Of a stretch of 47,767 bases of DNA, positions 3,389 through 47,767 are shown one piece after another. Made by a program: the position numbers and the translations under genes. Under the pieces are notes generated by a model. It made no database searches. It was not told where the DNA came from and saw nothing but the letters and a program-made list of their open reading frames with translations. Every line of letters begins with the position of its first letter. Positions within the stretch are counted from its first letter, which is position 1. Location: the NCBI GenBank assembly GCA_024546615.1, contig GCA_024546615.1_5040.1, one strand, 5' to 3'. This stretch comes from Escherichia coli. Its GTDB lineage: Bacteria; Pseudomonadota; Gammaproteobacteria; Enterobacterales; Enterobacteriaceae.

Positions 3389-4000
3389 TCTACCCGAGAT
3401 GTACCTTGCATACAGTCTCGAAGCGGTACATCTCGGGTATTTTTTGAAAAAGTAGAAGTATGCTTCTTGGTCGAATTTATTACCTTTCGAACGATTTATT
3501 TCTCTCGGCAATAGGCAGAGATTTTCCGAAGTATGTAACCCTCTGACATCCACGCCGCGCAACGGAATGATGTGGTCTACTTCGAGATTACCGCCAAGTA
3601 GCTTCGCGTATCGGTAAAGTTGCGAATAGACTTTTTCCACATCTTTACCGATTGAGGCCTGTGTTAAGTTTGCTCTTCTTTTGACCACTCTGGTTGCGAA
3701 CTTATCCTTGTTGGAAAGATAATGCCTTTTTGATTTATCAGCATACTTCTTGGGATTTTTTCTTTGCCAATCAATCACCCTTTCAATAATGACGTGTTTG
3801 TTTTGTTTGTAATACTCTTCTCTATATCGTGAAACTTTTTCTACGTTCTCGGATTGCCATTTCTTGTTGTATTGGGAAGTATGTGATTGATTCTGCTCAT
3901 TCCACTTTCTCTTGTACTCTTTTCTCATCTCTTTCCATTCTGAAATTCTAAGAGCATATTCGCTGTCTGTTTCAGTTTCTTTTTGCTTTGGTTTAGTCAT
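3380..4000 (-). CDS. HNH homing endonuclease
   Basis: C-terminal LEVDHIIPL...NLCLLPREINRSKGNKF HNH motif; basic N-terminus; RBS AGGTGG; inserted antisense between portal and head genes. Confidence 0.8.
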   Translation of the reverse strand: MTKPKQKETETDSEYALRISEWKEMRKEYKRKWNEQNQSHTSQYNKKWQSENVEKVSRYREEYYKQNKHVIIERVIDWQRKNPKKYADKSKRHYLSNKDKFATRVVKRRANLTQASIGKDVEKVYSQLYRYAKLLGGNLEVDHIIPLRGVDVRGLHTSENLCLLPREINRSKGNKFDQEAYFYFFKKYPRCTASRLYARYISGRLG

Positions 4001-4062
4001 GCTGTGCCACCTGTGATAATGTCGAAGTTAAAAAAAATCCCGACTTCCGCCGGGACATGTGG

Positions 4063-10088: not shown

Positions 10089-11123
10089 ATGGATAAGTTA
10101 AACAGCGTTGTACTTGACGCACAGACTATCGCGGGTAACCCGTGGGTCAAACAGTATCTGGACGGTCAGAACGCTATCAACGTTCCGGCTGAATTCCGTG
10201 ATGCTGACGGTGGTATCGCGTTCTACATCTCTCAGCTGGCACAGGTTGAGCAGACCGTTTACGCGACTCCATATGCAGATATTACCTATCTGCAGGATAT
10301 TCCGGTTGTGTCCGGCATCCCGGAACATGCGAACCATTGGGTGTACCGCTCATATGATGGCGTCACGGTTGGGAAATTCATCGGCGCAAACGCTATGGAC
10401 CTGCCACACGTCGCCCAGTCTGCAAAACTCCACACTGTACCGCTGAACTACGGTGGTATCGAGTGTCACTACAGCATCGACGAGCTGCGTACCACTGCGT
10501 CTCAGAACATGCCGATTGACACCATGCAGCAACAGTTGGCGTATCGTGGCTATGAAGAACACAGTCAGAAAGTGGCTTACTTCGGTGACTCACAACTGGG
10601 AATGGCCGGTCTGTTTAATAACAGCAACGTTACAGCGACCAGTGCAACTGTTGACTACACCACTGCCACCGGTCAGGAGCTGTTCAACATGCTCAACGAC
10701 CCACTGTTCGACGTCATCAAACTGTCCAAAAACTTCCACCTGCCTAACACCGTTCGCGTATTCCCGGACCTGTGGAAGCGCATGAACAGCACGCTAATGA
10801 CTGGTTACTCCGACACCACCGTAATGGAGTTTTTCAAAACCAACAACGCGTACACTCTGATGACCGGTCAGGAAATTGACATTCAGGTTCGTTTCCAGCT
10901 GACCGCTGCGGAGCTGGCTGCGGGCGGTGTGTCCAACGGTTCGAAAGACCGCGTGCTCATTTACGAGAAGAACGACCGCAACCTGGGTGTTGCTAAGCCG
11001 ATTCCGTTCCGTATGTTGGCACCACAGAACAAAGGTCTGGCCGTAACTGTACCGGCAGAGTATAAGATTTCAGGCACCGAAATTCGCTATCCTCTGAGCG
11101 CAATCTATCTCGACATGCTGTAA
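10089..11123 (+). CDS. Major capsid protein (lambda gpE-like fold presumed)
   Basis: 344 aa; position after scaffold/decoration genes; followed by strong intrinsic terminator. Confidence 0.7.
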   Translation: MDKLNSVVLDAQTIAGNPWVKQYLDGQNAINVPAEFRDADGGIAFYISQLAQVEQTVYATPYADITYLQDIPVVSGIPEHANHWVYRSYDGVTVGKFIGANAMDLPHVAQSAKLHTVPLNYGGIECHYSIDELRTTASQNMPIDTMQQQLAYRGYEEHSQKVAYFGDSQLGMAGLFNNSNVTATSATVDYTTATGQELFNMLNDPLFDVIKLSKNFHLPNTVRVFPDLWKRMNSTLMTGYSDTTVMEFFKTNNAYTLMTGQEIDIQVRFQLTAAELAAGGVSNGSKDRVLIYEKNDRNLGVAKPIPFRMLAPQNKGLAVTVPAEYKISGTEIRYPLSAIYLDML

Positions 11124-11146
11124 TACCTACCCTCAGCGACATCCCA

Positions 11147-11172
11147 AGCCCTCTTCGGAGGGCTTTTCTTTT
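11147..11172 (+). terminator. Rho-independent terminator after capsid gene
   Basis: Hairpin AGCCCTC-TTCG-GAGGGCT followed by TTTCTTTT. Confidence 0.7.
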
Positions 11173-11219
11173 GTCTCCTCTTGGGTTATAGTTACCACCG
11201 TCTTAAGAGGAGGAATTCC

Positions 11220-12800
11220 ATGTTCGTAGAAAGAGCAAAAAAAATACATAAAGGGAAATACGACTATTCCAAAGTGGAATATGTAAATAATAAAACACCC
11301 GTGACGATAGTTTGTCCGGTGCACGGTGATTTCGTTCAAATACCGCAGGGACACCTGAACTGCGAAATAGCGTGTCCAAAATGTAGAATCGACGATGTTT
11401 ATGACCGAATGATACAGCGGGCACGGGAGATTCATGGTGACAGATACTCATACGTCCGGGAATCATTCGTTTCCGTAGTCAAGAAAATGTCTATAATTTG
11501 TCCTGTACACGGGGTGTATCGGATGACACTGAACAACCATGTTCACAATGGTGCGGAATGTAAACCATGCGCACTGGCGAAACGTGGAGAATCACAACGG
11601 AAGACACTTGACAGTTTTGTGGAAGACGCGAAAAAAGTTCATGGTGACAGATACGATTATTCCAAAGTTATTTACGAGGGCAACAAAAAGAAAATAACCA
11701 TCACTTGTGCAAAACATGGTGACTTCAAACAGGAACCATATTCACATCTTTCGGGAAGAGGTTGTCCAAAATGCGGTCTCGAATCCAGAGCAAGCAAAAG
11801 TATGAGTACTCTTGAAAGATTCATTCACAAAAGCAGAGCTATACACGGTGACAAGTATGATTATTCTAAAGCGGTGTATAAAGGTAGTGACCAAAAACTA
11901 ACCATAATTTGTCCGGTGCACGGTGAATTTTCCCAATACGCAAATAACCACTCTACTCTTGGTCATCAATGCCCGACGTGTTCAAAAGCGGGTGTGTCCC
12001 GAGGTGAATTTGAAGTCTTCAACTTCGTCCGTTCCATCTGTCCCGATGCGGTACAATCCGACCGTACAACCATTGGACCGCTGGAACTTGATGTTGTAGT
12101 GCCGTCGCGCAATCTGGCAATTGAATTTAACGGTCTGTACTGGCACGATGAGCGCACGAAAGACAAGAAGTATCACATCGCCAAGCGTCACCGCGTGGAA
12201 GCCGCAGGATACCGTCTGATAAGTATCCGTGAGGATGTCTGGAATGAGCGCCGTGAGCAGGTAGAAAATATCATTCGCAACGCGCTCGGCGTGACATCCG
12301 ACAAAGTGTTTGCCCGTAAATGTGACATCGTGGAAGTTTCGACGTCTGAAGCGAAGGTATTCATGGAGAAACACCACGTGCAGGGTTTCCGGGGTGCGAC
12401 CGTTCATTATGGTTTGCAACATGATGACACCTTAGTTGCTGTGATCAGTCTGACAAACTGGCAGAAAAAGAACGAATGGGAACTGGTACGATATGCAACC
12501 GCGTGTAATGTCCCGGGTGGACTGTCCCGCTTGTGGAAACATGCTACCACGGTTAACAGCATCGTCCGCGCCTATTCATACGTTGACCGGGATTTGTTCA
12601 GCGGTTCCAGTTACGCTAATGCCGGTTTCATACTTTCAGCCACAACAGTAGGATTCAGGATCGTAAATGGTTGCACAACCGAATCGCGTGAGAAGTGGAA
12701 CCGCGCACCAGACGGAATGACACAGACGCAATGGTACGAATCAGAAGGTGTATCACGCATCTACGATTCTGGACAGGACAAGCTGTTATGGGTAAAATGA
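11220..12800 (+). CDS. Homing-endonuclease-like protein: four tandem zinc-ribbon modules, Vsr/DUF559-like nuclease core, unknown C-domain
   Basis: Four repeats of ...HGDxYDYSKV.Y...K.TI.CP.HG.F.Q.P..HL.G.GCPKCG; then ELDVVVP...LAIEFNGLYWHDE resembling Vsr FVDGCFWH motif; RBS AGGAGG; inserted after capsid terminator. Confidence 0.6.
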   Translation: MFVERAKKIHKGKYDYSKVEYVNNKTPVTIVCPVHGDFVQIPQGHLNCEIACPKCRIDDVYDRMIQRAREIHGDRYSYVRESFVSVVKKMSIICPVHGVYRMTLNNHVHNGAECKPCALAKRGESQRKTLDSFVEDAKKVHGDRYDYSKVIYEGNKKKITITCAKHGDFKQEPYSHLSGRGCPKCGLESRASKSMSTLERFIHKSRAIHGDKYDYSKAVYKGSDQKLTIICPVHGEFSQYANNHSTLGHQCPTCSKAGVSRGEFEVFNFVRSICPDAVQSDRTTIGPLELDVVVPSRNLAIEFNGLYWHDERTKDKKYHIAKRHRVEAAGYRLISIREDVWNERREQVENIIRNALGVTSDKVFARKCDIVEVSTSEAKVFMEKHHVQGFRGATVHYGLQHDDTLVAVISLTNWQKKNEWELVRYATACNVPGGLSRLWKHATTVNSIVRAYSYVDRDLFSGSSYANAGFILSATTVGFRIVNGCTTESREKWNRAPDGMTQTQWYESEGVSRIYDSGQDKLLWVK

Positions 12801-15186: not shown

Positions 15187-15215
15187 AGTATATCAGTGGC
15201 TGACGCATTCGTCAA
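15187..15215 (-). promoter_or_regulatory. Sigma70-like promoter TTGACG-17-TATACT overlapping palindrome CTGACGCATTCGTCAA (15200-15215)
   Basis: Spacing read directly; at left boundary of repeat copy A. Confidence 0.55.
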
Positions 15216-15510
15216 TACCTCATTTACCCCGAAATACCCGAGGCATCGGGGTGGCGAATTTACTTTCACAATCATAGGTTTACGCGCATAACCGAAAACC
15301 ACGTACATTCTTCCCCTCTTCCCTCTTATAAACCCTATAATATATACATTATGTATTATACTACATTTATACTATATATTATATACTCTCTATTACTACT
15401 AATTACTATTTTATAAGGGTATAAGGGTAATAAGTAATAAGTAACAGAAAACTAAAGAGTTTTTTATACCCCGATGACATACCCCGAACGAGTTTCAACG
15501 GGGTATGTGG
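15211..15510. repeat. Repeat copy A (~300 bp, about 93% identical to 47502-47767 plus 1-35): hairpins, AT-rich TATA-rich core, TAAGGGTA/ATAAGTA short direct repeats
   Basis: Direct by-eye alignment of the two copies; hairpin CCCCGA-N13-TCGGGG near 15228-15252 and ATACCCCG-N12-CGGGGTAT at 15479-15506. Confidence 0.85.
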
Positions 15511-32346: not shown

Positions 32347-32375
32347 ACTCTAAACTACTTTGACGCACTCGTCAA
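32347..32375 (-). promoter_or_regulatory. Sigma70-like promoter TTGACG-17-TAGAGT overlapping palindrome TTGACGCACTCGTCAA (32360-32375), embedded in 3' end of upstream gene
   Basis: Spacing read directly. Confidence 0.5.
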
Positions 32376-32948
32376 CGGTAAAACTAACTTTTCTGCTTCC
32401 TGAATGTACCAGTCGTAATTCAGTGCTCCCCAGTCGAAGTCTTTAGCGTCGGCACACTCTGTCACCTTCCATCCTGCACACATACTTGTTTCGCGCACTG
32501 CATCGTGCTTACTGCGACTCTTCGTGTGGATACGCTCGTCCCACGGTGTACCAATGCTGTCGAGGTCGCCCGGTTGACCTGTAATCTCACGCATTACCGC
32601 ATTGTACACATCGTCCTTGACACCATTCTTACGCTTCCATGTACCTGGTGTACCAGTGGGCGGTAACAGCTTGACCAGTGACCCACCGTTACGCGAGATA
32701 AATACACGTGTGGTATTCTGCATCTCCTGTTCAGCGCCCCACTCAGGCCAACGCATCACCAGACGTGCCGAACGAGGTACTTTGGCGCGCAGCATGAAGT
32801 CGAACGGGTCACGGTGCTGCGTGATGAACGTGCGGATGTCAGTGTCAAACAGAAGTGCGGCTTCAGCGGCGCGGGCAACAATCATCGCCGATGGGTCTTG
32901 ATGCCACTGGTATTTGTACTCGTAACACCCTTTTCTTTTAATTTTCAC
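32355..32948 (-). CDS. Hypothetical protein (197 aa) sharing GTPWDERIH motif with 37785-38834
   Basis: Motif DSIGTPWDERIHTKS versus DSTGTPWDERIHSTS in the 349-aa protein. Confidence 0.45.
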   Translation of the reverse strand: MKIKRKGCYEYKYQWHQDPSAMIVARAAEAALLFDTDIRTFITQHRDPFDFMLRAKVPRSARLVMRWPEWGAEQEMQNTTRVFISRNGGSLVKLLPPTGTPGTWKRKNGVKDDVYNAVMREITGQPGDLDSIGTPWDERIHTKSRSKHDAVRETSMCAGWKVTECADAKDFDWGALNYDWYIQEAEKLVLPLTSASK

Positions 32949-33828
32949 GGGTTGCCTCCAGCATTTCTAAAATTCGATTGTCCCATTTCAACCATTCGGT
33001 ACAACCATCAAAACCAGATAGTCCAGCATTAACGAAAGAAGAATGAGTTAGTTTTTCGATAAATTCCATTTTTCCACCTATGCCAGATAAAACTCGGAGT
33101 AACTGAAAATCAAATGGCGTACTTCTTTTCAATTTCCTCAAGCGATATTTATAATTATTGCTGATACCGACCTTCATATATTCCCCACCTTTGGAAGCAA
33201 GTACATAAAGGGAAGCCATCTGGTTACGTTTAAATCCACTCTTAGAACAGTCTTGACATCCTTGTCCACCGGATACGTGATCTATAGCCAATTTTTCAAA
33301 ACTACCGTGAACAGGGCAAATTATCTTTATTTTATGATGATTACCTTTATATTGAGATTCCGAATAATCATACTTATCCCCATGTACTGCGCGGGCTTTC
33401 TCAATCCATTCTTCGGTGTTATAAAGAGGAAGTCGTCCTTTTCCAGGACCTCCTGCGCATTTCGCGCACCCGTGGCCTTTTAGATGATTGCCGGCTAATT
33501 GGAGGAATTCCCCATGCTCTCGACAAATGATTATTATTTCTGAATGTCGTTTTTTATACTTAACCTTCGAATAATCATACTTATCTCCATGTACTGCACG
33601 GGCTTTCTCAATCCATTCTTCAGTGCTGGATTTTTTTGTCCCACCACAAACTGGGCAGCCGGAACCAGAACAGTGAGACGTGGGTTCTTGTCGGAAATCT
33701 CCATGCAATCGACAAACAATGGTCACTTTATGTTTTGAAGTACGATACTCGACCTTCGAATAATCATACTTATCTCCGTGTACCGCACGGGCTTTCTCAA
33801 TCCATTCTTCTGTGTTCAATCTTCTCAT
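32938..33828 (-). CDS. Homing-endonuclease-like protein: three tandem zinc-ribbon modules plus C-terminal T5orf172 (GIY-YIG-like) domain
   Basis: Three repeats of EEWIEKARAVHGDKYDYS...; C-terminal YVLASKGGEYMKVGISNNYKYRLRKL...GCTEWLKW; contains three ~55-bp DNA direct repeats. Confidence 0.6.
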   Translation of the reverse strand: MRRLNTEEWIEKARAVHGDKYDYSKVEYRTSKHKVTIVCRLHGDFRQEPTSHCSGSGCPVCGGTKKSSTEEWIEKARAVHGDKYDYSKVKYKKRHSEIIIICREHGEFLQLAGNHLKGHGCAKCAGGPGKGRLPLYNTEEWIEKARAVHGDKYDYSESQYKGNHHKIKIICPVHGSFEKLAIDHVSGGQGCQDCSKSGFKRNQMASLYVLASKGGEYMKVGISNNYKYRLRKLKRSTPFDFQLLRVLSGIGGKMEFIEKLTHSSFVNAGLSGFDGCTEWLKWDNRILEMLEATREN

Positions 33829-35348
33829 TCTATTACCATTATGTAATTATTCACATCTCGCTGATAGAGAGATTTCACAATATCAGTCTCCAGATTCAAC
33901 ATTGTTGTTTTTTCCCAAGACTTACATATGGATTCCACCAAAATTTCATATTTGTTTTCATAAAAAATGACGATTCCGTCAGTATTAGTTTGCGGTACGA
34001 TTAATCCGGGTACACGAGTTACAAGTTGGTCTACCAACATTGCCAAACAGAGTTGACCTGTAATAGTAATACTCAGGAGACACTTATGGTCACAAAATGG
34101 GCTAAATTTACTCCCCATGTTCCCAAATGTACCATTAAGAGCAAGTTTCAATGCCGCATCAACTGTTTTATCTCCCGCTCGTTTTGCATCACGACGACGA
34201 ATGAACAGTTGTTCATATACGTCGCAAAAAGTTTCACTAAGGTGTTCCGGATAGTACCTATTCTTTATACTAATGGAAGGGTACATACTTGTACAGTCTT
34301 TGTTTTGTAAATTGTGTGTTTGGGTAGAATGCACAACGTAGTTCGGAATACTACTGTGAATACCTCCCAATCCGAACGAATATTCGACACCATCAACTGT
34401 GACGGTCATATCACTAAACACACCTTTTGTGGTCAGTAATTCGTCCTGTTGTTTCTTCGTGAGTACAACCCCACGAATGCGTTCCAGAATTTGATTGAAC
34501 TCCGGTCGTTCGAATTTGATATAAGGGGGTATGCAATCTGCAAGTGCAATACGTTCACGAATGGTTACTCCGGAGCAATCTACCCCGGCCTTTTCCAGCT
34601 CGTGAACGAATATATCTTTGCCGATTTTAGTGTCGGCGTGGTTCATGAAGTTACGTCCGTATTGCTTTGTCAGTTCCTCACGGAAATGGATTTTGTCGAG
34701 TGAACGTACAAAGAATTTCAGCGTCTCTCGCACGTCGTGTTTGTTATATACGATGAGGATATCTTTCTGCGCATCGTTCAGCACCATTCCGACCGGGAAT
34801 GGCAGGTCTTTTACGTTGGGGGACTGCATGCCCACTTCCAACGCCTTCAGACTGGTGCGCCGGGCTTTATTATCAAAGTGATGAATTTTGTACAGGTCAA
34901 TCTGCTCGAAAATCTGGTCGCGGTCCCATACAATTTCGGGCCACTGACCTTCGGGTTTAATTTGTGATTGTGCTTTTGTGTAAATCTGTTCCAGTGTACA
35001 GCCTGGTGTATTGACCACGTAGTGCAACACCGGATAGTCGAATGCCAGGTTATTAAATCCAATCCCACGGGCCTTACTACATCCCAGGTTGAACACAAAT
35101 TCGATTAATTGCGGTTGCTCGTTTTTGCGGTCACTAATCTCGAAGATTAACTCCATACCCGTCGCAGCGTGAATAAATGAGGCAGTGAAGATATTCGGAT
35201 ACGTCTCGATGTCCCATCCCCAGTCCCGCGGGTCCAGTGGTGCAACGCTGGAGAACGCCGAATCAGCCCCACAGTGAGGGCAATTGTGGAGGTCAGCGGG
35301 ATAATTTTTACCGCAAGTTGCATCCTCGCATTTTGATAAATAGTGCAT
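33825..35348 (-). CDS. Compact family-B DNA polymerase with 3'-5' exonuclease motifs and N-terminal zinc finger
   Basis: Exo I WDIETY, Exo II FNNLAFDYPVL, Exo III YNKHDVRE; motif A DCTSMYPSI, motif B KLALNGTFG, motif C TNTDG; N-terminal C-x4-C-x11-C-x2-C. Confidence 0.7.
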   Translation of the reverse strand: MHYLSKCEDATCGKNYPADLHNCPHCGADSAFSSVAPLDPRDWGWDIETYPNIFTASFIHAATGMELIFEISDRKNEQPQLIEFVFNLGCSKARGIGFNNLAFDYPVLHYVVNTPGCTLEQIYTKAQSQIKPEGQWPEIVWDRDQIFEQIDLYKIHHFDNKARRTSLKALEVGMQSPNVKDLPFPVGMVLNDAQKDILIVYNKHDVRETLKFFVRSLDKIHFREELTKQYGRNFMNHADTKIGKDIFVHELEKAGVDCSGVTIRERIALADCIPPYIKFERPEFNQILERIRGVVLTKKQQDELLTTKGVFSDMTVTVDGVEYSFGLGGIHSSIPNYVVHSTQTHNLQNKDCTSMYPSISIKNRYYPEHLSETFCDVYEQLFIRRRDAKRAGDKTVDAALKLALNGTFGNMGSKFSPFCDHKCLLSITITGQLCLAMLVDQLVTRVPGLIVPQTNTDGIVIFYENKYEILVESICKSWEKTTMLNLETDIVKSLYQRDVNNYIMVIE

Positions 35349-38974: not shown

Positions 38975-39151
38975 ATGAGCCAAATTAAACGCAAAGTAAC
39001 ACATCGTGTTTGCCCTTTATGTGGGTATGTAATGACTCAACTGGAAATAGACAGACTTCGTTTTCCGGTTGAGTGCCCCAGATGTGGCGAACACAACACA
39101 AACGAGTTTCAACCTCTCAAATGGGAGTCCGACAACAGTGACACAAATTAA
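38975..39151 (+). CDS. Small zinc-ribbon protein (58 aa, C-x2-C ... C-x2-C)
   Basis: RBS GAAGGAG; VCPLCG and ECPRCG pairs; below track cutoff. Confidence 0.45.
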   Translation: MSQIKRKVTHRVCPLCGYVMTQLEIDRLRFPVECPRCGEHNTNEFQPLKWESDNSDTN

Positions 39152-39298
39152 ACAACTGCTCCGGCCTTCTTACGGCTGGTACAACTCGGTCAGTAAGAAG
39201 GACAAATGGTTCCTCGACGATGTGCAGATACCGATGTATGTGGCACGTAAACTAATCAGAAAAGCACGTATGGTTGAATCGAACAGCGTGCGCAAAGT

Positions 39299-41990: not shown

Positions 41991-44348
41991 ATGACACATA
42001 TGAATCCCCCTGTGCAGGGGGCTGATTCCCTGCACTTTATCGTCTGCAAAACAGTACCTTCACAGAAGAAGCCGGGACGTACGGAGAAGATGCCATGTAA
42101 CGCTGCCGGTGATGTGGTCAGTCTGCACGTTGCGGACCGGATGTCTCACGCTCAGGCAGTTGCGGCGGCTTCCGCACTGGGTGAGTCATATCGTCCCGCG
42201 GTTATTCTTACGGGTGACGGACGTTTCTGCGTGGATATCGACGGCGCACTGCAGGACGACAACACCTGGTCGCCGCTTGCGCTGGAGTTATGCACCACTT
42301 TTGCCGGTTGTTACGTGGAAGTGAGCAACAGCGGTAAAGGCTTGCACATTTTTGGTTACAGCCCGTCCATCCCCGAACATGCCTGTAAAAATATTCCACT
42401 ACACATTGAACTGTACACCTCTGACCGTTTTATCTGCCTGGGGAGCAACGCACGAGGTGACATGATGTTCAACGCATCTGCGCCGCTCAACGCCACGGTT
42501 GCACGTTATTTCCCGCAGACCGAACAAGTTGCGGCGGTGGAGTGGACAACGACTCACGCTGAAGGTTCGTGTCCGATTGAGGATGATGTGAAACTCATCG
42601 AAAAAGCCTGTTCCAGTAAAGGCGGTGTCGCGGCTGTTTTCGGTGGTAAAGCAACATTCAAAGACCTGTGGACGCGCAACGTTGAGGTACTGAGTGATGC
42701 GTATCCGGATGAGGACCGTGAATATGACGGGTCAAGCGCTGATGCAGCATTAGCCCAGCATCTGGCGTTCTGGTGCGGCGGTAACTGTCAACGTATTGAG
42801 CGTCTGATGCGTCTCAGTGCCCTTGTCAGACCAAAATGGGACAGCCATAAGAGTTACCTTCAACGCACCATCCTGGGCGCTTGCGCACGTCAGACGACTT
42901 ATTACAGCGTCGGTGCACCAATTGAACTGGTAACTCCCGCGCAGGTTGTCGAGACGGGTGCGCCGGTTATCCGCAGTGGGTATCAGTTCATTGGAGGCTC
43001 ACAGCTTGTTGACCACTTCAAAGGCTGCGTGTATGTGGCAGACAGTCACCGCATTCTCACACCTAACGGTCAGATGCTGAAGTCCGAGCAGTTTAACGCG
43101 ATGTACGGTGGTTATGTGTTTGCACTGGATGACGGTAACGAAAAGACCACCAAAAAGGCTTTTGAAGCGTTCACCGAGAATCAGTGCATCATGTTCCCGA
43201 AGGTTGATCGCTCGACATTTCGTCCGGATTTGCCACAGGGTGCAATCATTGAGGAGGATGGTCTGCGTCACGTCAATACGTACATACCGGTGACGGTGGC
43301 GAGCGCCCCCGGCGATGTGACACCTTTCCTCACTCATCTGGCCAAACTGTTACCCGTCGAGCGCGACCGTGACATTCTGTTGTCCTACATGGCAGCGTGT
43401 GTACAGTACAAGGGTGTAAAATTTAAATGGGCACCATTGTTACAGGGTGTTGAAGGTAACGGTAAAACACTGTTCACACTGTGCGTAATGGAAGCGGTCG
43501 GGTCACGTTACAGCCACATGCCGCCAGCGCAGGAAATTGGTGAGAAGTTCAACGCCTGGTTGTTCGATAAAATATTTATCGGCGTGGAGGATATTTATGT
43601 CCCGGAGCAAAAACTCGAACTGATTGAGACGCTCAAGCCGATGATTACCGGCGAGTACCTCGCCAAGCGTGCGATGCAACAGGACCAGGTAATGCACCGC
43701 CTGTGTGCTAACTTCATGTTTAACAGTAACCACAAGAACGCCGTGCGCAAGACCGCTAATGACCGCCGGTTCGCCATTTTCTACACCGCGCAGCAGGAGC
43801 ATATGGACATTGTGCGCGATGGTATGGGTGGCGACTACTTCCCCAACCTGTATGACTGGCTCAAACGTGGCGGTGGATTTGCAGCCGTAACGCATTATCT
43901 GGAGAACTACGCCATTCCCACACAACTTAACCCGGCGACACATTGTCAGCGTGCCCCGGAAACAAGTAGTACCCACGAGGCTGTGACAGCATCACTCGGC
44001 AGTGTCGAGCAGGAAATTATGGAAGCAATCGACGAGGGTCGCACGGGCTTCGCGGGGGGCTGGGTGAGTAGTAAAGCACTGGATAATCTGTTACGCCAGA
44101 TGCGCGCTGACCGCGCTGTGCCGGTGGGTAAACGTCGCGACATGATGCGCCAACTGGGTTACGACTGGCACCCGGCGCTTAAAGACGGGCGTGTGAATAA
44201 CGTAATAATGATTGATGGTGGTAAACCGCGTCTCTACATCAAGATTGGACATATTCATGCTAACCTCACAAATGCGGCGGACGTGGCGCGCCATTACGCA
44301 GCAGCACAGGGTGATACAAGTGCGTTAGCCTTTGCAGAAACTAAATAA
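41991..44348 (+). CDS. Primase-helicase (P4 alpha/D5-like, SF3 helicase C-domain)
   Basis: 785 aa; Walker A GVEGNGKT, Walker B FIGVEDIYV; N-terminal primase-like domain; RBS AGAGAGACAGAG. Confidence 0.7.
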   Translation: MTHMNPPVQGADSLHFIVCKTVPSQKKPGRTEKMPCNAAGDVVSLHVADRMSHAQAVAAASALGESYRPAVILTGDGRFCVDIDGALQDDNTWSPLALELCTTFAGCYVEVSNSGKGLHIFGYSPSIPEHACKNIPLHIELYTSDRFICLGSNARGDMMFNASAPLNATVARYFPQTEQVAAVEWTTTHAEGSCPIEDDVKLIEKACSSKGGVAAVFGGKATFKDLWTRNVEVLSDAYPDEDREYDGSSADAALAQHLAFWCGGNCQRIERLMRLSALVRPKWDSHKSYLQRTILGACARQTTYYSVGAPIELVTPAQVVETGAPVIRSGYQFIGGSQLVDHFKGCVYVADSHRILTPNGQMLKSEQFNAMYGGYVFALDDGNEKTTKKAFEAFTENQCIMFPKVDRSTFRPDLPQGAIIEEDGLRHVNTYIPVTVASAPGDVTPFLTHLAKLLPVERDRDILLSYMAACVQYKGVKFKWAPLLQGVEGNGKTLFTLCVMEAVGSRYSHMPPAQEIGEKFNAWLFDKIFIGVEDIYVPEQKLELIETLKPMITGEYLAKRAMQQDQVMHRLCANFMFNSNHKNAVRKTANDRRFAIFYTAQQEHMDIVRDGMGGDYFPNLYDWLKRGGGFAAVTHYLENYAIPTQLNPATHCQRAPETSSTHEAVTASLGSVEQEIMEAIDEGRTGFAGGWVSSKALDNLLRQMRADRAVPVGKRRDMMRQLGYDWHPALKDGRVNNVIMIDGGKPRLYIKIGHIHANLTNAADVARHYAAAQGDTSALAFAETK

Positions 44349-44370
44349 GCCCTTCGGGGCTTTTTTTTTT
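44347..44370 (+). terminator. Intrinsic terminator GCCC-TTCG-GGGC plus T10
   Basis: Read directly. Confidence 0.75.
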
Positions 44371-44380
44371 GCAATTAGTA

Positions 44381-44409
44381 TTGACGGACTCGTCAATAGG
44401 GCGTATATT
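44381..44409 (+). promoter_or_regulatory. Near-consensus sigma70 promoter TTGACG-17-TATATT with palindrome TTGACGGACTCGTCAA (44381-44396)
   Basis: Read directly; preceded by conserved GCAATTAGT. Confidence 0.65.
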
Positions 44410-44458
44410 TAATCACATGAAAGGCGGAACTGTTCCACCCCACGGGGAGAATAAGAAA

Positions 44459-44590: not shown

Positions 44591-44616
44591 CAGCCCCTGA
44601 ATGGGGCTTTTTTTTT
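44591..44616 (+). terminator. Intrinsic terminator AGCCCC-TGAAT-GGGGCT plus T9
   Basis: Read directly. Confidence 0.75.
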
Positions 44617-44626
44617 GCAATTAGTG

Positions 44627-44655
44627 TTGACGAGTCCGTCAAGGTAGGTTATCTT
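44627..44655 (+). promoter_or_regulatory. Sigma70-like promoter TTGACG-17-TATCTT with palindrome TTGACGAGTCCGTCAA (44627-44642)
   Basis: Read directly; same GCAATTAGT upstream context as 44381. Confidence 0.6.
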
Positions 44656-45059: not shown

Positions 45060-45262
45060 GTTACTGCCAGTTGATGGAGCGCTGTTTGGCAGCTGAGGCG
45101 CGGGTGGTGGAACTGGAGAAATATAAAGCTGCATTTATAACGTGGCAAGACAAAACAGAATGGGTGCAGAAGGATTCACGCTTTGATATTTTGTTACCCT
45201 GGGGCAAGCATCGAGCGGACGTACTGAAAGAGTACATTGAATTGCTGGAGCGTAAACCATGA
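45041..45262 (+). CDS. Hypothetical protein (73 aa)
   Basis: Overlapping start/stop arrangement in operon. Confidence 0.4.
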   Translation: MDMETLSYCQLMERCLAAEARVVELEKYKAAFITWQDKTEWVQKDSRFDILLPWGKHRADVLKEYIELLERKP

Positions 45263-45555
45263 TTAAATATTTACCACTTGTAGCGCTCCTGGTGGGCGCT
45301 CAGGCTCACGCGGGTGTGATTGCAGTGAGTGATGAAGCACAGGTCGCTAACATGCTCTTTAACGGATGCAGCGCTCAACGTGCACAAATGGGCGTGCAGG
45401 AAATTATTAAACAGGCTAACCCGGGCGATAATCCTGCGGTGACTGACCTTATCATTAAAGGTTACAAGTTCGGCATTGATTACCCGAATGTCGGATGCAA
45501 CCAGTTCTTTACAGTTGTTATCGACCAGTTAGTTAACGCCAGGAGCAAAGCGTAA
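45259..45555 (+). CDS. Secreted/periplasmic protein with signal peptide (98 aa)
   Basis: MIKYLPLVALLVGAQAHA then GVIAV...; two Cys. Confidence 0.5.
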   Translation: MIKYLPLVALLVGAQAHAGVIAVSDEAQVANMLFNGCSAQRAQMGVQEIIKQANPGDNPAVTDLIIKGYKFGIDYPNVGCNQFFTVVIDQLVNARSKA

Positions 45556-45656
45556 TGACTATTCTGACGGAAGAGAAATTACTGGCCGATGTGAGTGCGG
45601 GGATGAGTGGTCACGCCATTGCGAGAAAGTATGGTATGACCCCCCGGCAATATTAA
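45555..45656 (+). CDS. HTH-containing N-terminal segment (33 codons) ending at stop just after a C6 tract; likely 5' part of the downstream gene
   Basis: RBS AGGAG; ...AGMSGHAIARKYGMTP then stop; the +1 frame continues as GNINRRIKRLGARGL... into the 45706 ORF. Confidence 0.4.
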   Translation: MTILTEEKLLADVSAGMSGHAIARKYGMTPRQY

Positions 45657-45705
45657 CCGCCGCATCAAACGTCTCGGTGCGCGCGGTCTTGGTCACGGTG
45701 GTGAT

Positions 45706-46680
45706 GTGTCCCGCTTTGTGCCGGACGGTTACAAGGTAAAAGGTACATCGTCACTAGTGAAGGAGGATGGGACTGTAGCGCTGCAATGGGTTAAAACCGA
45801 TGTGGACGCCGAGCGCCAGTTGAAAATGATGCAGGAAGCGATTGCGGCGCTTACAGCGGATATTAAGCCGGTTAAATTACCCGGGTTTACCGGACACCCC
45901 ACCTCGGAGAATCTTTGTAACCTGTACACTGTAAGTGATTTTCATCTGGGGATGCTGGCGTGCCTGGAAGAGTCCGGTGAGGACTGGGATATCAAAATAG
46001 CGGAGGACATGTTTGTTAAGTGGTTCAGCGCTGCCGTTGAGATATCACCGTGGTCACATACAGCCGTAGTGTCACTACTGGGCGACCTGATGCACAGTGA
46101 CTCGCTGGCCCCGGTAACTCCGGCGAGTGGGCATGTGCTGGATGCAGACAGCCGGTATTTTAAAATGATCCAGGTAACAATGCGAATGGTGCGCCGGGCG
46201 ATTGAAATTGTCGCGCTGAAACACCCGCAGGTGCACATCGTTGTATCACAAGGTAACCACGACGAGACAGGTATGTTATGGCTCACCAGCGCGCTTGAGA
46301 TGATGTACGGACACGATGACCGTGTGACTGTGGACACATCGCCGGACGTGTTCAAAATGTTCCGCCACGGCGACACGGTACTCTTTTTCCACCATGGTCA
46401 CAAGGTGCGATTTGCCAGCATTGAGCCGGTAATGATTTCCCGGTTCCGCCGCGACTATGGTGAGACAAGTTACGCATACGCCCACGTGGGTCATCTGCAT
46501 CACCAGAAAATTGTCGAGAGTAATTGTATGGTGGTCGAACAACACCGCACGCTGGCGGCTAAAGATGCGTATGCGGCCCGGGGAGGATGGTTCAGTGGGC
46601 GCAGCGCCAATGTCATTACATATCACAAGCAATACGGTGAAGTCAGTCGTCAGTCAATCAGTCCGGAGATGTTGAAATGA
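45706..46680 (+). CDS. Calcineurin-like metallophosphoesterase
   Basis: Motifs DFHLG, LLGDLMHSD, GNHDE, FHHGH, GHLHH; track start is GTG; reading frame is open upstream to 45640. Confidence 0.6.
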   Translation: MSRFVPDGYKVKGTSSLVKEDGTVALQWVKTDVDAERQLKMMQEAIAALTADIKPVKLPGFTGHPTSENLCNLYTVSDFHLGMLACLEESGEDWDIKIAEDMFVKWFSAAVEISPWSHTAVVSLLGDLMHSDSLAPVTPASGHVLDADSRYFKMIQVTMRMVRRAIEIVALKHPQVHIVVSQGNHDETGMLWLTSALEMMYGHDDRVTVDTSPDVFKMFRHGDTVLFFHHGHKVRFASIEPVMISRFRRDYGETSYAYAHVGHLHHQKIVESNCMVVEQHRTLAAKDAYAARGGWFSGRSANVITYHKQYGEVSRQSISPEMLK

Positions 46681-46840
46681 TTAGTTATGATTTCGATGCG
46701 GGTTGTATCTGGTTTCGCGTGTTCGGTAAAGGGATTTTAATTATTGACCGGTCTATTCATCCTCCGCTGTTTAGTGTGAGGACCGGAAGGAAAAAGGAAT
46801 TCAGAATAGGGAAATACGGAATACAGTTAATCAGGTAAAT

Positions 46841-46871
46841 AAAAGGCCCGCATTTAGCGGGCTTTGTTTTT
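46841..46871. terminator. Bidirectional terminator GCCCGC-ATTTA-GCGGGC flanked by A- and T-tracts
   Basis: Between convergent genes ending at 46680 (+) and 46873 (-). Confidence 0.65.
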
Positions 46872-46872
46872 A

Positions 46873-47451
46873 TTATCTCCCACAGTTGCGACATTTGCCA
46901 TTCGCCACATAACGTTCTGCAATAATATTACAGTGCTTGCAAGGCTCATACGGAATATACCAGCGTTTGCCATCAGCGATAGCTTGCTGGCGCGGCGATT
47001 TAATTTTAATGATGCCGACGTGGATTCCTGCTTCACTCAGTAACAGGGCGTTTTTCATCGTCTCTAACTGTTCATTCAAAACGGAAATATTGTGCTCAAT
47101 CATTGCGATGTTCTCACGCAGTGCATCGGCTTCACCAGTAGTGCTAACAACGGCTGATTTTGGTTTTTTCCATTCCCCTGTCATGCGCTGCTCGGTTAAG
47201 CAGAAGACACATTTGCCAGCAGTGTTACGGACACCCGGATGTCCACATTCACTGTTCGGTTTCTTCTGCACCCTCCACGAACGACCATCGTTAAGACCGT
47301 CGAGAACTTTCTGATAGAGTTCATTACGTGCAGGAAGACCCATGTTTTTCGCTTTCACAAAATTATAGTGGTCATCAAGTGTACAAATACTGCACAATTC
47401 TGTTTCTTTAAATTTTGTATCGCCGTGACAATTATCTCTGAGATGAATCAT
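46873..47451 (-). CDS. Cys-pair-rich (zinc-finger-like) hypothetical protein (192 aa)
   Basis: Three C-x2-C pairs; RBS AGGAGAGAAAC; first gene downstream of promoter at repeat B boundary. Confidence 0.5.
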   Translation of the reverse strand: MIHLRDNCHGDTKFKETELCSICTLDDHYNFVKAKNMGLPARNELYQKVLDGLNDGRSWRVQKKPNSECGHPGVRNTAGKCVFCLTEQRMTGEWKKPKSAVVSTTGEADALRENIAMIEHNISVLNEQLETMKNALLLSEAGIHVGIIKIKSPRQQAIADGKRWYIPYEPCKHCNIIAERYVANGKCRNCGR

Positions 47452-47476: not shown

Positions 47477-47506
47477 ACTATAAAACAATAGAGAATTACG
47501 GGTCAA
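47477..47506 (-). promoter_or_regulatory. Sigma70-like promoter TTGACC-18-TATAGT at left boundary of repeat copy B (half palindrome only)
   Basis: Read directly. Confidence 0.45.
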
Positions 47507-47767
47507 TACCTCATTTTACCCCGAAATACCCGAGGCATCGGGGTAGCGAATTTACTTTCACAATCAGCAGCTTACGCGCATAACCGAAAACCCCGTACAT
47601 TCCTCCCCTCTTCCCTCTTATAAACCCTATAATATATACATTATGTATTATACTACATTTATACTATATATTATATACTCTCTATTACTACTAATTACTA
47701 TTTATTAGGGGTATAGGGGTAATAAGTAGTATAGTACTGAAAGGTAAAGAGTTTTTTATACCCCGAT
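47502..47767. repeat. Repeat copy B (continues into 1-35), about 93% identical to 15211-15510
   Basis: Direct alignment by eye; same hairpins and AT-rich core as copy A. Confidence 0.85.

Follow-up and report, generated by a model that had tools for sequence, protein, structure and literature searches.

A unique C5-to-C6 allele splits the HTH-metallophosphoesterase reading frame of a Jedunavirus-like phage: recent slippage mutation or sequencing error?

Towards the end of the window, i.e. the whole 47,767-nt stretch of DNA analyzed here, a short open reading frame (ORF) that begins like a helix-turn-helix (HTH) protein terminates shortly after a run of six C, while the +1 frame continues through a complete metallophosphoesterase-like domain. 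The original prediction interpreted this arrangement as a single HTH-metallophosphoesterase gene interrupted at the homopolymer, and listed a frameshift mutation, a sequencing error and a phase-variable site as possible causes. The locus raises the question of whether the two ORFs are indeed one gene and, if so, whether the extra C is a base of the phage DNA, a product of sequencing or assembly, or a functional element that is used by the ribosome or by the phage population.

The window constitutes a complete Jedunavirus-like phage genome of ~47.8 kb, whose nearest relatives in GenBank are ~90% identical to it. Seventy-three phage records match the locus at 80-92% identity; nearly all are Klebsiella phages of the genus Jedunavirus, and they are accompanied by Pectobacterium phage PEAT2 and Escherichia phage ZCEC13, the genome of which is colinear with the window. 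Origin from an E. coli prophage was considered and rejected, since a megablast search of the locus against E. coli genomes returned no match. The ends of the window join: a direct repeat of ~300 nt (93-97% identity) occurs at 15211-15510 and again at 47502-47767 plus 1-35, and as the latter copy runs over the joined ends, we regard the window as a complete genome that is either circularly closed or permuted. The repeat itself resembles a duplicated intergenic block, possibly a regulatory one. Elsewhere in the same genome, the DNA polymerase gene (minus strand, 32355-35348) is split into ORFs 33825-35348 (507 aa) and 32355-32948 (197 aa), between which, overlapping both, lies a 296-aa ORF (32938-33828) with Pfam matches to T5orf172/MUG113 (GIY-YIG-like) and to a treble-clef zinc-finger, which is similar to the 'endonuclease-like protein' encoded at 11181-12800. 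It looks like a polymerase gene split by a homing-endonuclease gene; the polymerase is uninterrupted in SBP and ZCEC13, and BUCT_49532 is annotated with two polymerase pieces.

The elements on which the original prediction was built, namely the AGGAG, the ATG, the C6 run, the TAA that follows it and the +1 frame open to 46680, are all present in the sequence (Table 1). The frame-0 ORF encodes MTILTEEKLLADVSAGMSGHAIARKYGMTPRQY and reads through the lesion as ATG ACC CCC CGG CAA TAT TAA, while the +1 frame is open from 45640 (it reads PPGNINRRIKRLGARG..., also given as PPGNINRRIKRLGARGLGHGGDV...) up to its own TAA. The run at 45640-45645 is the sole C run of at least 6 nt in the window. The gene belongs to a chain of translationally coupled ORFs flanked by terminators at 44592-44608 and 46843-46865, and the GGAG at the Shine-Dalgarno position is kept in the relatives. 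The primase gene is separated from the small-ORF operon of the split gene by two similar cassettes (44347-44409 and 44592-44655), each of which comprises a G+C-rich hairpin with a T9-T10 tail followed by a promoter-like TTGACG-17-TATNTT. Two neighbours bear misleading names in the relatives: the 98-aa protein (45259-45555) appears as 'transketolase protein', and the 192-aa Cys-rich protein (46873-47451, minus strand) as 'DNA double strand break repair ATPase' or 'Rad50'. Pfam supports neither name, and each protein matches only a PHROG family of unknown function.

Table 1. Features of the split gene and its immediate surroundings (positions in the window)
Feature	Position	Strand	Description
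Shine-Dalgarno AGGAG	45541..45545	+	Read from the sequence; 9 nt 5' of ATG 45555
5' gene fragment, frame 0	45555..45656	+	33 aa: HTH helices 1 and 2, three out-of-frame residues, TAA (45654-45656)
C6 homopolymer, frameshift site	45640..45645	+	Exactly six C; codons Thr29-Pro30/Gly31
Rest of the gene, +1 frame	45646..46680	+	Recognition helix (residues 30-42), linker, beta-hairpin subdomain, metallophosphoesterase core; TAA 46678-46680
GTG, Val51 of the intact protein	45706..45708	+	First canonical start in the +1 frame, and the only one that could give the 324-aa product without the HTH
53-aa ORF	46677..46838	+	ATG overlaps the metallophosphoesterase stop (ATGA); final gene before the bidirectional terminator 46843-46865

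Comparison with the relatives leaves little doubt about the ancestral arrangement. All of them carry one gene, typically of 1125 nt and 374 aa, and not a single orthologue is split, so the interpretation as one interrupted gene holds and the two-gene outcome that could have refuted it was not encountered. Phages P5026, KLPPOU148, PEAT2 and Geezett each carry the orthologue as one coding sequence of 1125 nt, compared with 1126 nt for the window span 45555-46680; all 60 of the listed GenBank phage matches to 45555-45720 measure 165 nt against 166 nt in the window, and the sole gap in the alignment with relatives is placed in the C run. Each of the 42 related loci that were fetched yields one tblastn HSP in one frame, starting from residue 1 of the repaired protein, and a single gene of 374-385 aa is found in all 10 further metagenomic contigs that were identified via the 53-aa ORF. 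Against every relative, the C6 run holds one additional C. The three closest genes, which come from Logan and ENA assemblies, show 95.2-96.6% nucleotide identity with exactly one gap and read ATGACCCCCGGC (C5), so that the window allele is a one-C insertion that expanded C5 to C6 in an ancestrally single gene, as the alignment shows. Across 29 relatives the five bases of the site are GCCCC, GCCCG, CCCCC (in-frame C5, in 6 of the 29 loci), GTCCG, CCCCT, GTCCC or CCCCG, none of them out of frame.

Deletion of one C, which had been predicted to yield a fusion of about 375 aa, gives a protein of 374 aa. It aligns from end to end, at 99% identity, with P0001, an actual protein of the same size (E 1.4e-250), and its residues 4-374 match positions 4-390 of the 390-position profile of PHROG 704 (E 1.7e-144); on both counts the match is far beyond chance. 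The first 30 residues of the frame-0 fragment already share 97% identity with the start of the 374-aa protein encoded at loci L030/L031. A degenerate pattern with the in-frame spacing was found in 23 IMG/VR contigs, while the corresponding pattern with the 6-nt, frameshifted spacing of the window had no match there, and neither did the exact 30-mer across the C6 site. Three hits of the frameshifted pattern in JGI metagenomes and one in GTDB genomes turned out to be unrelated chance matches, devoid of blastn similarity to the gene. Within the collections searched, the window allele is thus shown to be unique. The exact 98-aa, 324-aa, 192-aa and 73-aa products of the window are likewise not on record, and the 53-aa ORF alone is; the identical 53-aa protein is encoded 3' of an intact gene in all 10 contigs shown, among at least 24 that carry it.

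A structural model adds to this picture. The AlphaFold model, built from P0001 (pLDDT 91.8), comprises an HTH made of helices 6-14, 19-26 and 30-42, a low-confidence linker at ~41-50, a beta-hairpin at 59-83 and a phosphoesterase core that begins at about residue 117. The first two helices fall in the frame-0 fragment, and the frameshift at residues 30/31 coincides with the turn that opens the HTH recognition helix. According to the model, the resulting 33-aa peptide is devoid of DNA-reading capacity, and a product re-initiated at GTG 45706, which corresponds to a residue of the linker, would be an enzyme without the HTH. Could the locus nevertheless represent two genuine genes, one for a 33-aa peptide and another for an independently initiated 324-aa phosphoesterase? 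GTG 45706 does follow, at a distance of 3 nt, a weak GGTGGT motif (a poor Shine-Dalgarno sequence), and proteins of 274-311 aa that have no HTH, and which may be fragments, occur among distant representatives of the family. The break, however, cuts through a folded HTH of three helices and separates helix 2 from the recognition helix, and the +1 frame encodes the missing helix without a start codon. Moreover, every orthologue is a single ORF in which this GTG is a conserved internal Val codon, and neither the sequence nor the alignment of the relatives offers evidence for a dedicated start there. We consider two separate genes to be scarcely credible.

How old is the extra C, and is it present in the DNA at all? 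The repaired gene differs from its closest relative by 31 synonymous and 5 non-synonymous codons, and this comparison reveals no second lesion on either side of the frameshift. The codon differences show, as far as sequence comparison goes, that purifying selection acted on the gene practically up to now; together with the missing second lesion, this implies that the extra C either has a very recent origin or does not exist in the DNA. The latter reading, in which a homopolymer miscall of sequencing or assembly turned a genuine C5 into C6 in the consensus and the 374-aa gene of the phage itself is intact, must be taken seriously, and we place its probability only somewhat short of even. Exactly one homopolymer C separates the window from its three closest relatives, it sits in the only C run of at least 6 nt in the genome, the gene is otherwise intact and has evolved predominantly by synonymous changes, and the frameshifted state occurs in no other genome of any collection searched.

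The rest of the genome speaks against an error, albeit mildly. A tblastn comparison with the ORFs of up to nine relatives (at least 90 aa, then at least 45 aa) revealed no other genuine change of frame. Apparent frame switches at 44332-44410 and 39069-39252 were dismissed, because they correspond to short ORFs over a terminator/T-run or to alternative arrangements of small genes, and not to frameshifts. Long ORFs contain about 20 further runs of at least 6 nt, among them A8, T8 and T7, and none of these is out of frame. Homopolymers as clean as these are unusual for strongly error-prone data, although a single residual error in the C6 run is entirely plausible; they argue mildly against data prone to homopolymer errors and, combined with the lack of any other frame change, mildly in favour of a real mutation.

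Our preferred reading is that the C5 run gained one C in a real slipped-strand insertion that became fixed in the isolate, to which we assign a probability of about 0.5; that the extra C is in the DNA is what we infer here. Three considerations weigh against it. A consensus error in the only C6 run of the genome predicts an identical pattern of a unique allele, an intact gene and purifying selection. In addition, the gene is conserved in every relative examined, so that its loss would normally be selected against, and several platforms could plausibly leave a single homopolymer error uncorrected in 48 kb. Whichever of the two holds, the window copy belongs to the PHROG 704/Jedunavirus orthologue group, either as a disrupted or as a mis-sequenced member. 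We judge the extra C to be a non-programmed single-base lesion, which on the preferred reading arose at the very tip of the lineage.

The word 'non-programmed' requires justification, as the lesion happens to create a sequence known to promote frameshifting. In a scenario of programmed +1 frameshifting, as in prfB and Ty1, the C6 run would be a functional design: with the minor Arg codon CGG next in line, tRNA-Pro would shift by one base from CCC to CCC, and the full-length protein would be made in regulated amounts. The frame-0 CCC-CGG is indeed a known slippery motif, a +1 slip at this site regenerates the exact ancestral MTP-GNINRR, and the phage uses CGG only sparingly for Arg (6.1 per 1000, compared with 19.6 for CGT). 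In E. coli, CCC-C causes up to ~1% of spontaneous +1 frameshifting (PMC4519876), and m1G37 and EF-P counteract the slip of tRNA-Pro (PMC4519876 and related work). The described system thus shares with the lesion the same frame-0 CCC-CGG, at which a +1 slip restores the ancestral frame and peptide; it is, however, a translational error of ~1% that is highest at the second codon (PMC4519876 and related work), while the motif in the window is located at codon 30 and was born by insertion.

Nonetheless, programmed frameshifting at the C6 run is very improbable. All other orthologues are in frame and their run varies (GCCCC, GCCCG, GTCCG, CCCCT and others), no Shine-Dalgarno-like stimulator is found upstream of the site, and the downstream RNA shows no significant structure (z 0.19 against shuffled sequences for the 121 nt of 45620-45740), so that neither the conserved slippery arrangement nor the stimulatory element of a prfB/Ty1-type site is found here. 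Besides, in-frame CCC-C occurs 11 times in the other long ORFs of the genome without consequence, and the known spontaneous efficiency reaches only ~1%. We found no sign that the slip is used at the site in the window. If the C6 allele is real, the CCC-CGG slip motif, the minor CGG codon and the restored peptide make a trace of full-length protein plausible by analogy. Transcriptional slippage was also considered and rejected, since a C6 run is too short for it.

Phase variation, the third of the causes listed originally, would have the C tract lengthen and shorten at high frequency, so that the gene would be alternately active and silent among the phages of a population. Such behaviour has been reported for poly-G tracts in Campylobacter phages, and a G/C homopolymer close to the 5' end of its gene occupies the classical position of a contingency locus. 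Hypermutable tracts usually have a length of at least 8, however, and six C are shorter than the tracts known to behave in this way. Synonymous substitutions interrupt the two to five C found in the relatives, so selection does not maintain a tract, and the off state is seen in none of more than 100 related sequences. What we observe is a tract of 6 nt in the window and a single, in-frame length class elsewhere, which is not the signature of a contingency locus, and we therefore judge phase variation highly unlikely. From the original list, a frameshift mutation and a sequencing error stay equally viable, while the phase-variable site fails on a short, unconserved run and on an out-of-frame state that no other genome exhibits.

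Returning to the slipped-strand insertion, its course and consequences may be envisaged as follows. The C5 run would gain one C by slippage, and the new allele would become fixed in the isolate, e.g. if the phage was plaque-purified on a permissive host that does not require the gene. The ribosome would then stop after 33 codons, with the break at the start of the recognition helix, which would result in a null or strongly hypomorphic allele. We infer at most two minor products: a little of the HTH-less enzyme, made by re-initiation at GTG 45706, 50 nt past the stop, and up to ~1% of full-length protein, made by a spontaneous +1 slip of tRNA-Pro on CCC-C that would restore M-T-P-G-N-I-N. The ATGA overlap indicates that the 53-aa ORF is translationally coupled to the metallophosphoesterase gene, and given the chain of coupled ORFs, early termination may also lower expression of this downstream ORF.

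A more elaborate version, in which the C6 is real and not simply dead, would have it provide either a tunable, low level of the full-length HTH-nuclease via the slip of tRNA-Pro or an on/off mixture of C5 and C6 genomes. We regard it as a long shot. Were it true, the level of the slip-made protein would be sensitive to the status of host tRNA-Arg(CCG), m1G37 and EF-P, or a C5/C6 mixture in the stock would turn on and off a gene that carries a cost on some hosts; in either case the locus would represent a newly arisen recoding or contingency site.

The protein that is split in the window copy is predicted to be a DNA-binding metallophosphoesterase, probably a nuclease. All five calcineurin-like motifs predicted from the window sequence were found (DFH, GD, GNHD, HHGH and GHLHH), and the metal-binding residues D128, H130, G176, D177, N234, H235, H280, G312 and H315 are invariant in an alignment of 81 family members. 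The core exhibits the beta-alpha-beta-alpha-beta sandwich fold of the calcineurin-like metallophosphoesterase superfamily. Nevertheless, the Pfam model Metallophos_2 scores only 13.2 bits, under the cut-off of 27, and Metallophos is matched at E <=0.01 by 21 of the 81 family members; by these profile comparisons the family is a divergent branch of the metallophosphoesterases. It is a very large one: a search gave 5,269 hits in the scored candidates, and at 50% identity the members fall into 4,617 clusters. A typical member has 370-420 aa, with an HTH at the N-terminus that is recognized by a wide variety of Pfam HTH models, followed by a Metallophos domain that is divergent.

The closest described counterparts are the 374-aa Jedunavirus/Peatvirus orthologues collected in PHROG 704 ('DNA repair exonuclease'), including PEAT2 gp23 (YP_009702210), Geezett gp78 and SBP gp43, which are 94-99% identical to the repaired protein; homologues that are ~60% identical occur in Jerseyvirus Salmonella phages. 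The window gene shares with these orthologues its genomic position, 3' of the primase gene and small ORFs and 5' of the 53-aa ORF and the terminator, and the order primase, small ORFs, gene, optional PNKP gene, 53-aa ORF and terminator is kept. It differs from them by the extra C and by the split into 33 aa and 324 aa, seen in the window copy only, in place of one uninterrupted ORF of ~370-390 aa. The names attached to this family (exonuclease, calcineurin-like phosphoesterase, wHTH protein, transcriptional regulator, oxidoreductase) represent annotation only. Searches of NCBIfam and of PDB sequences for a function gave no match, and a literature search revealed no functional study of the HTH-metallophosphoesterase family.

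According to structural comparison of the model, the nearest neighbours of the core belong to the nuclease branch, namely PolD DP1, Mre11 and SbcD, with ~190-215 residues aligned structurally at 14-18% sequence identity; no PDB chain matches the window protein at the sequence level. Unlike these three, the window protein carries an N-terminal HTH and a beta-hairpin subdomain, and while Mre11 and SbcD have a partner in Rad50/SbcC, none was identified for it.

For annotation, these results mean that the two ORFs belong together as one frameshifted gene (a pseudogene or a 'low-quality, frameshift' entry), orthologous to the Jedunavirus gene for the 374-aa HTH-metallophosphoesterase, in place of a pair of hypothetical proteins. 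Provided that the lesion is real, the isolate is a natural knock-out that can be compared with its intact relatives with respect to the function of the enzyme, which belongs to a very widespread (>4,600 clusters at 50% identity) and experimentally uncharacterized family. The gene family itself is already known and widely annotated, a gain of one base in a short homopolymer is commonplace, and as regards frameshifting or phase variation the locus adds nothing new.

Two further observations concern the evolution of the orthologues. They form two allelic classes, with ~95% and ~54% amino acid identity to the window protein (loci L006, L008, L011-L015, L017-L018, L020-L021, L023-L025, L027-L029, L040 and L045 compared against L001-L005, L010, L026, L030-L032, L037-L039, L041-L044 and L046). 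Both classes share the N-terminal 30-90 residues and reside in otherwise similar Jedunavirus genomes, which suggests recombinational exchange of the catalytic part. Finally, the closest relatives (L030-L032, L037 and L038) carry, between the metallophosphoesterase gene and the 53-aa ORF, a gene for a 164-aa HAD/PNKP-type phosphatase (at 11122-11616 or 3510-4004 of the respective loci), which is missing from the window (46677-46680) and from several other relatives. The frequent pairing of the metallophosphoesterase with PNKP in these gene neighbourhoods hints at a role in the healing of nucleic-acid ends.
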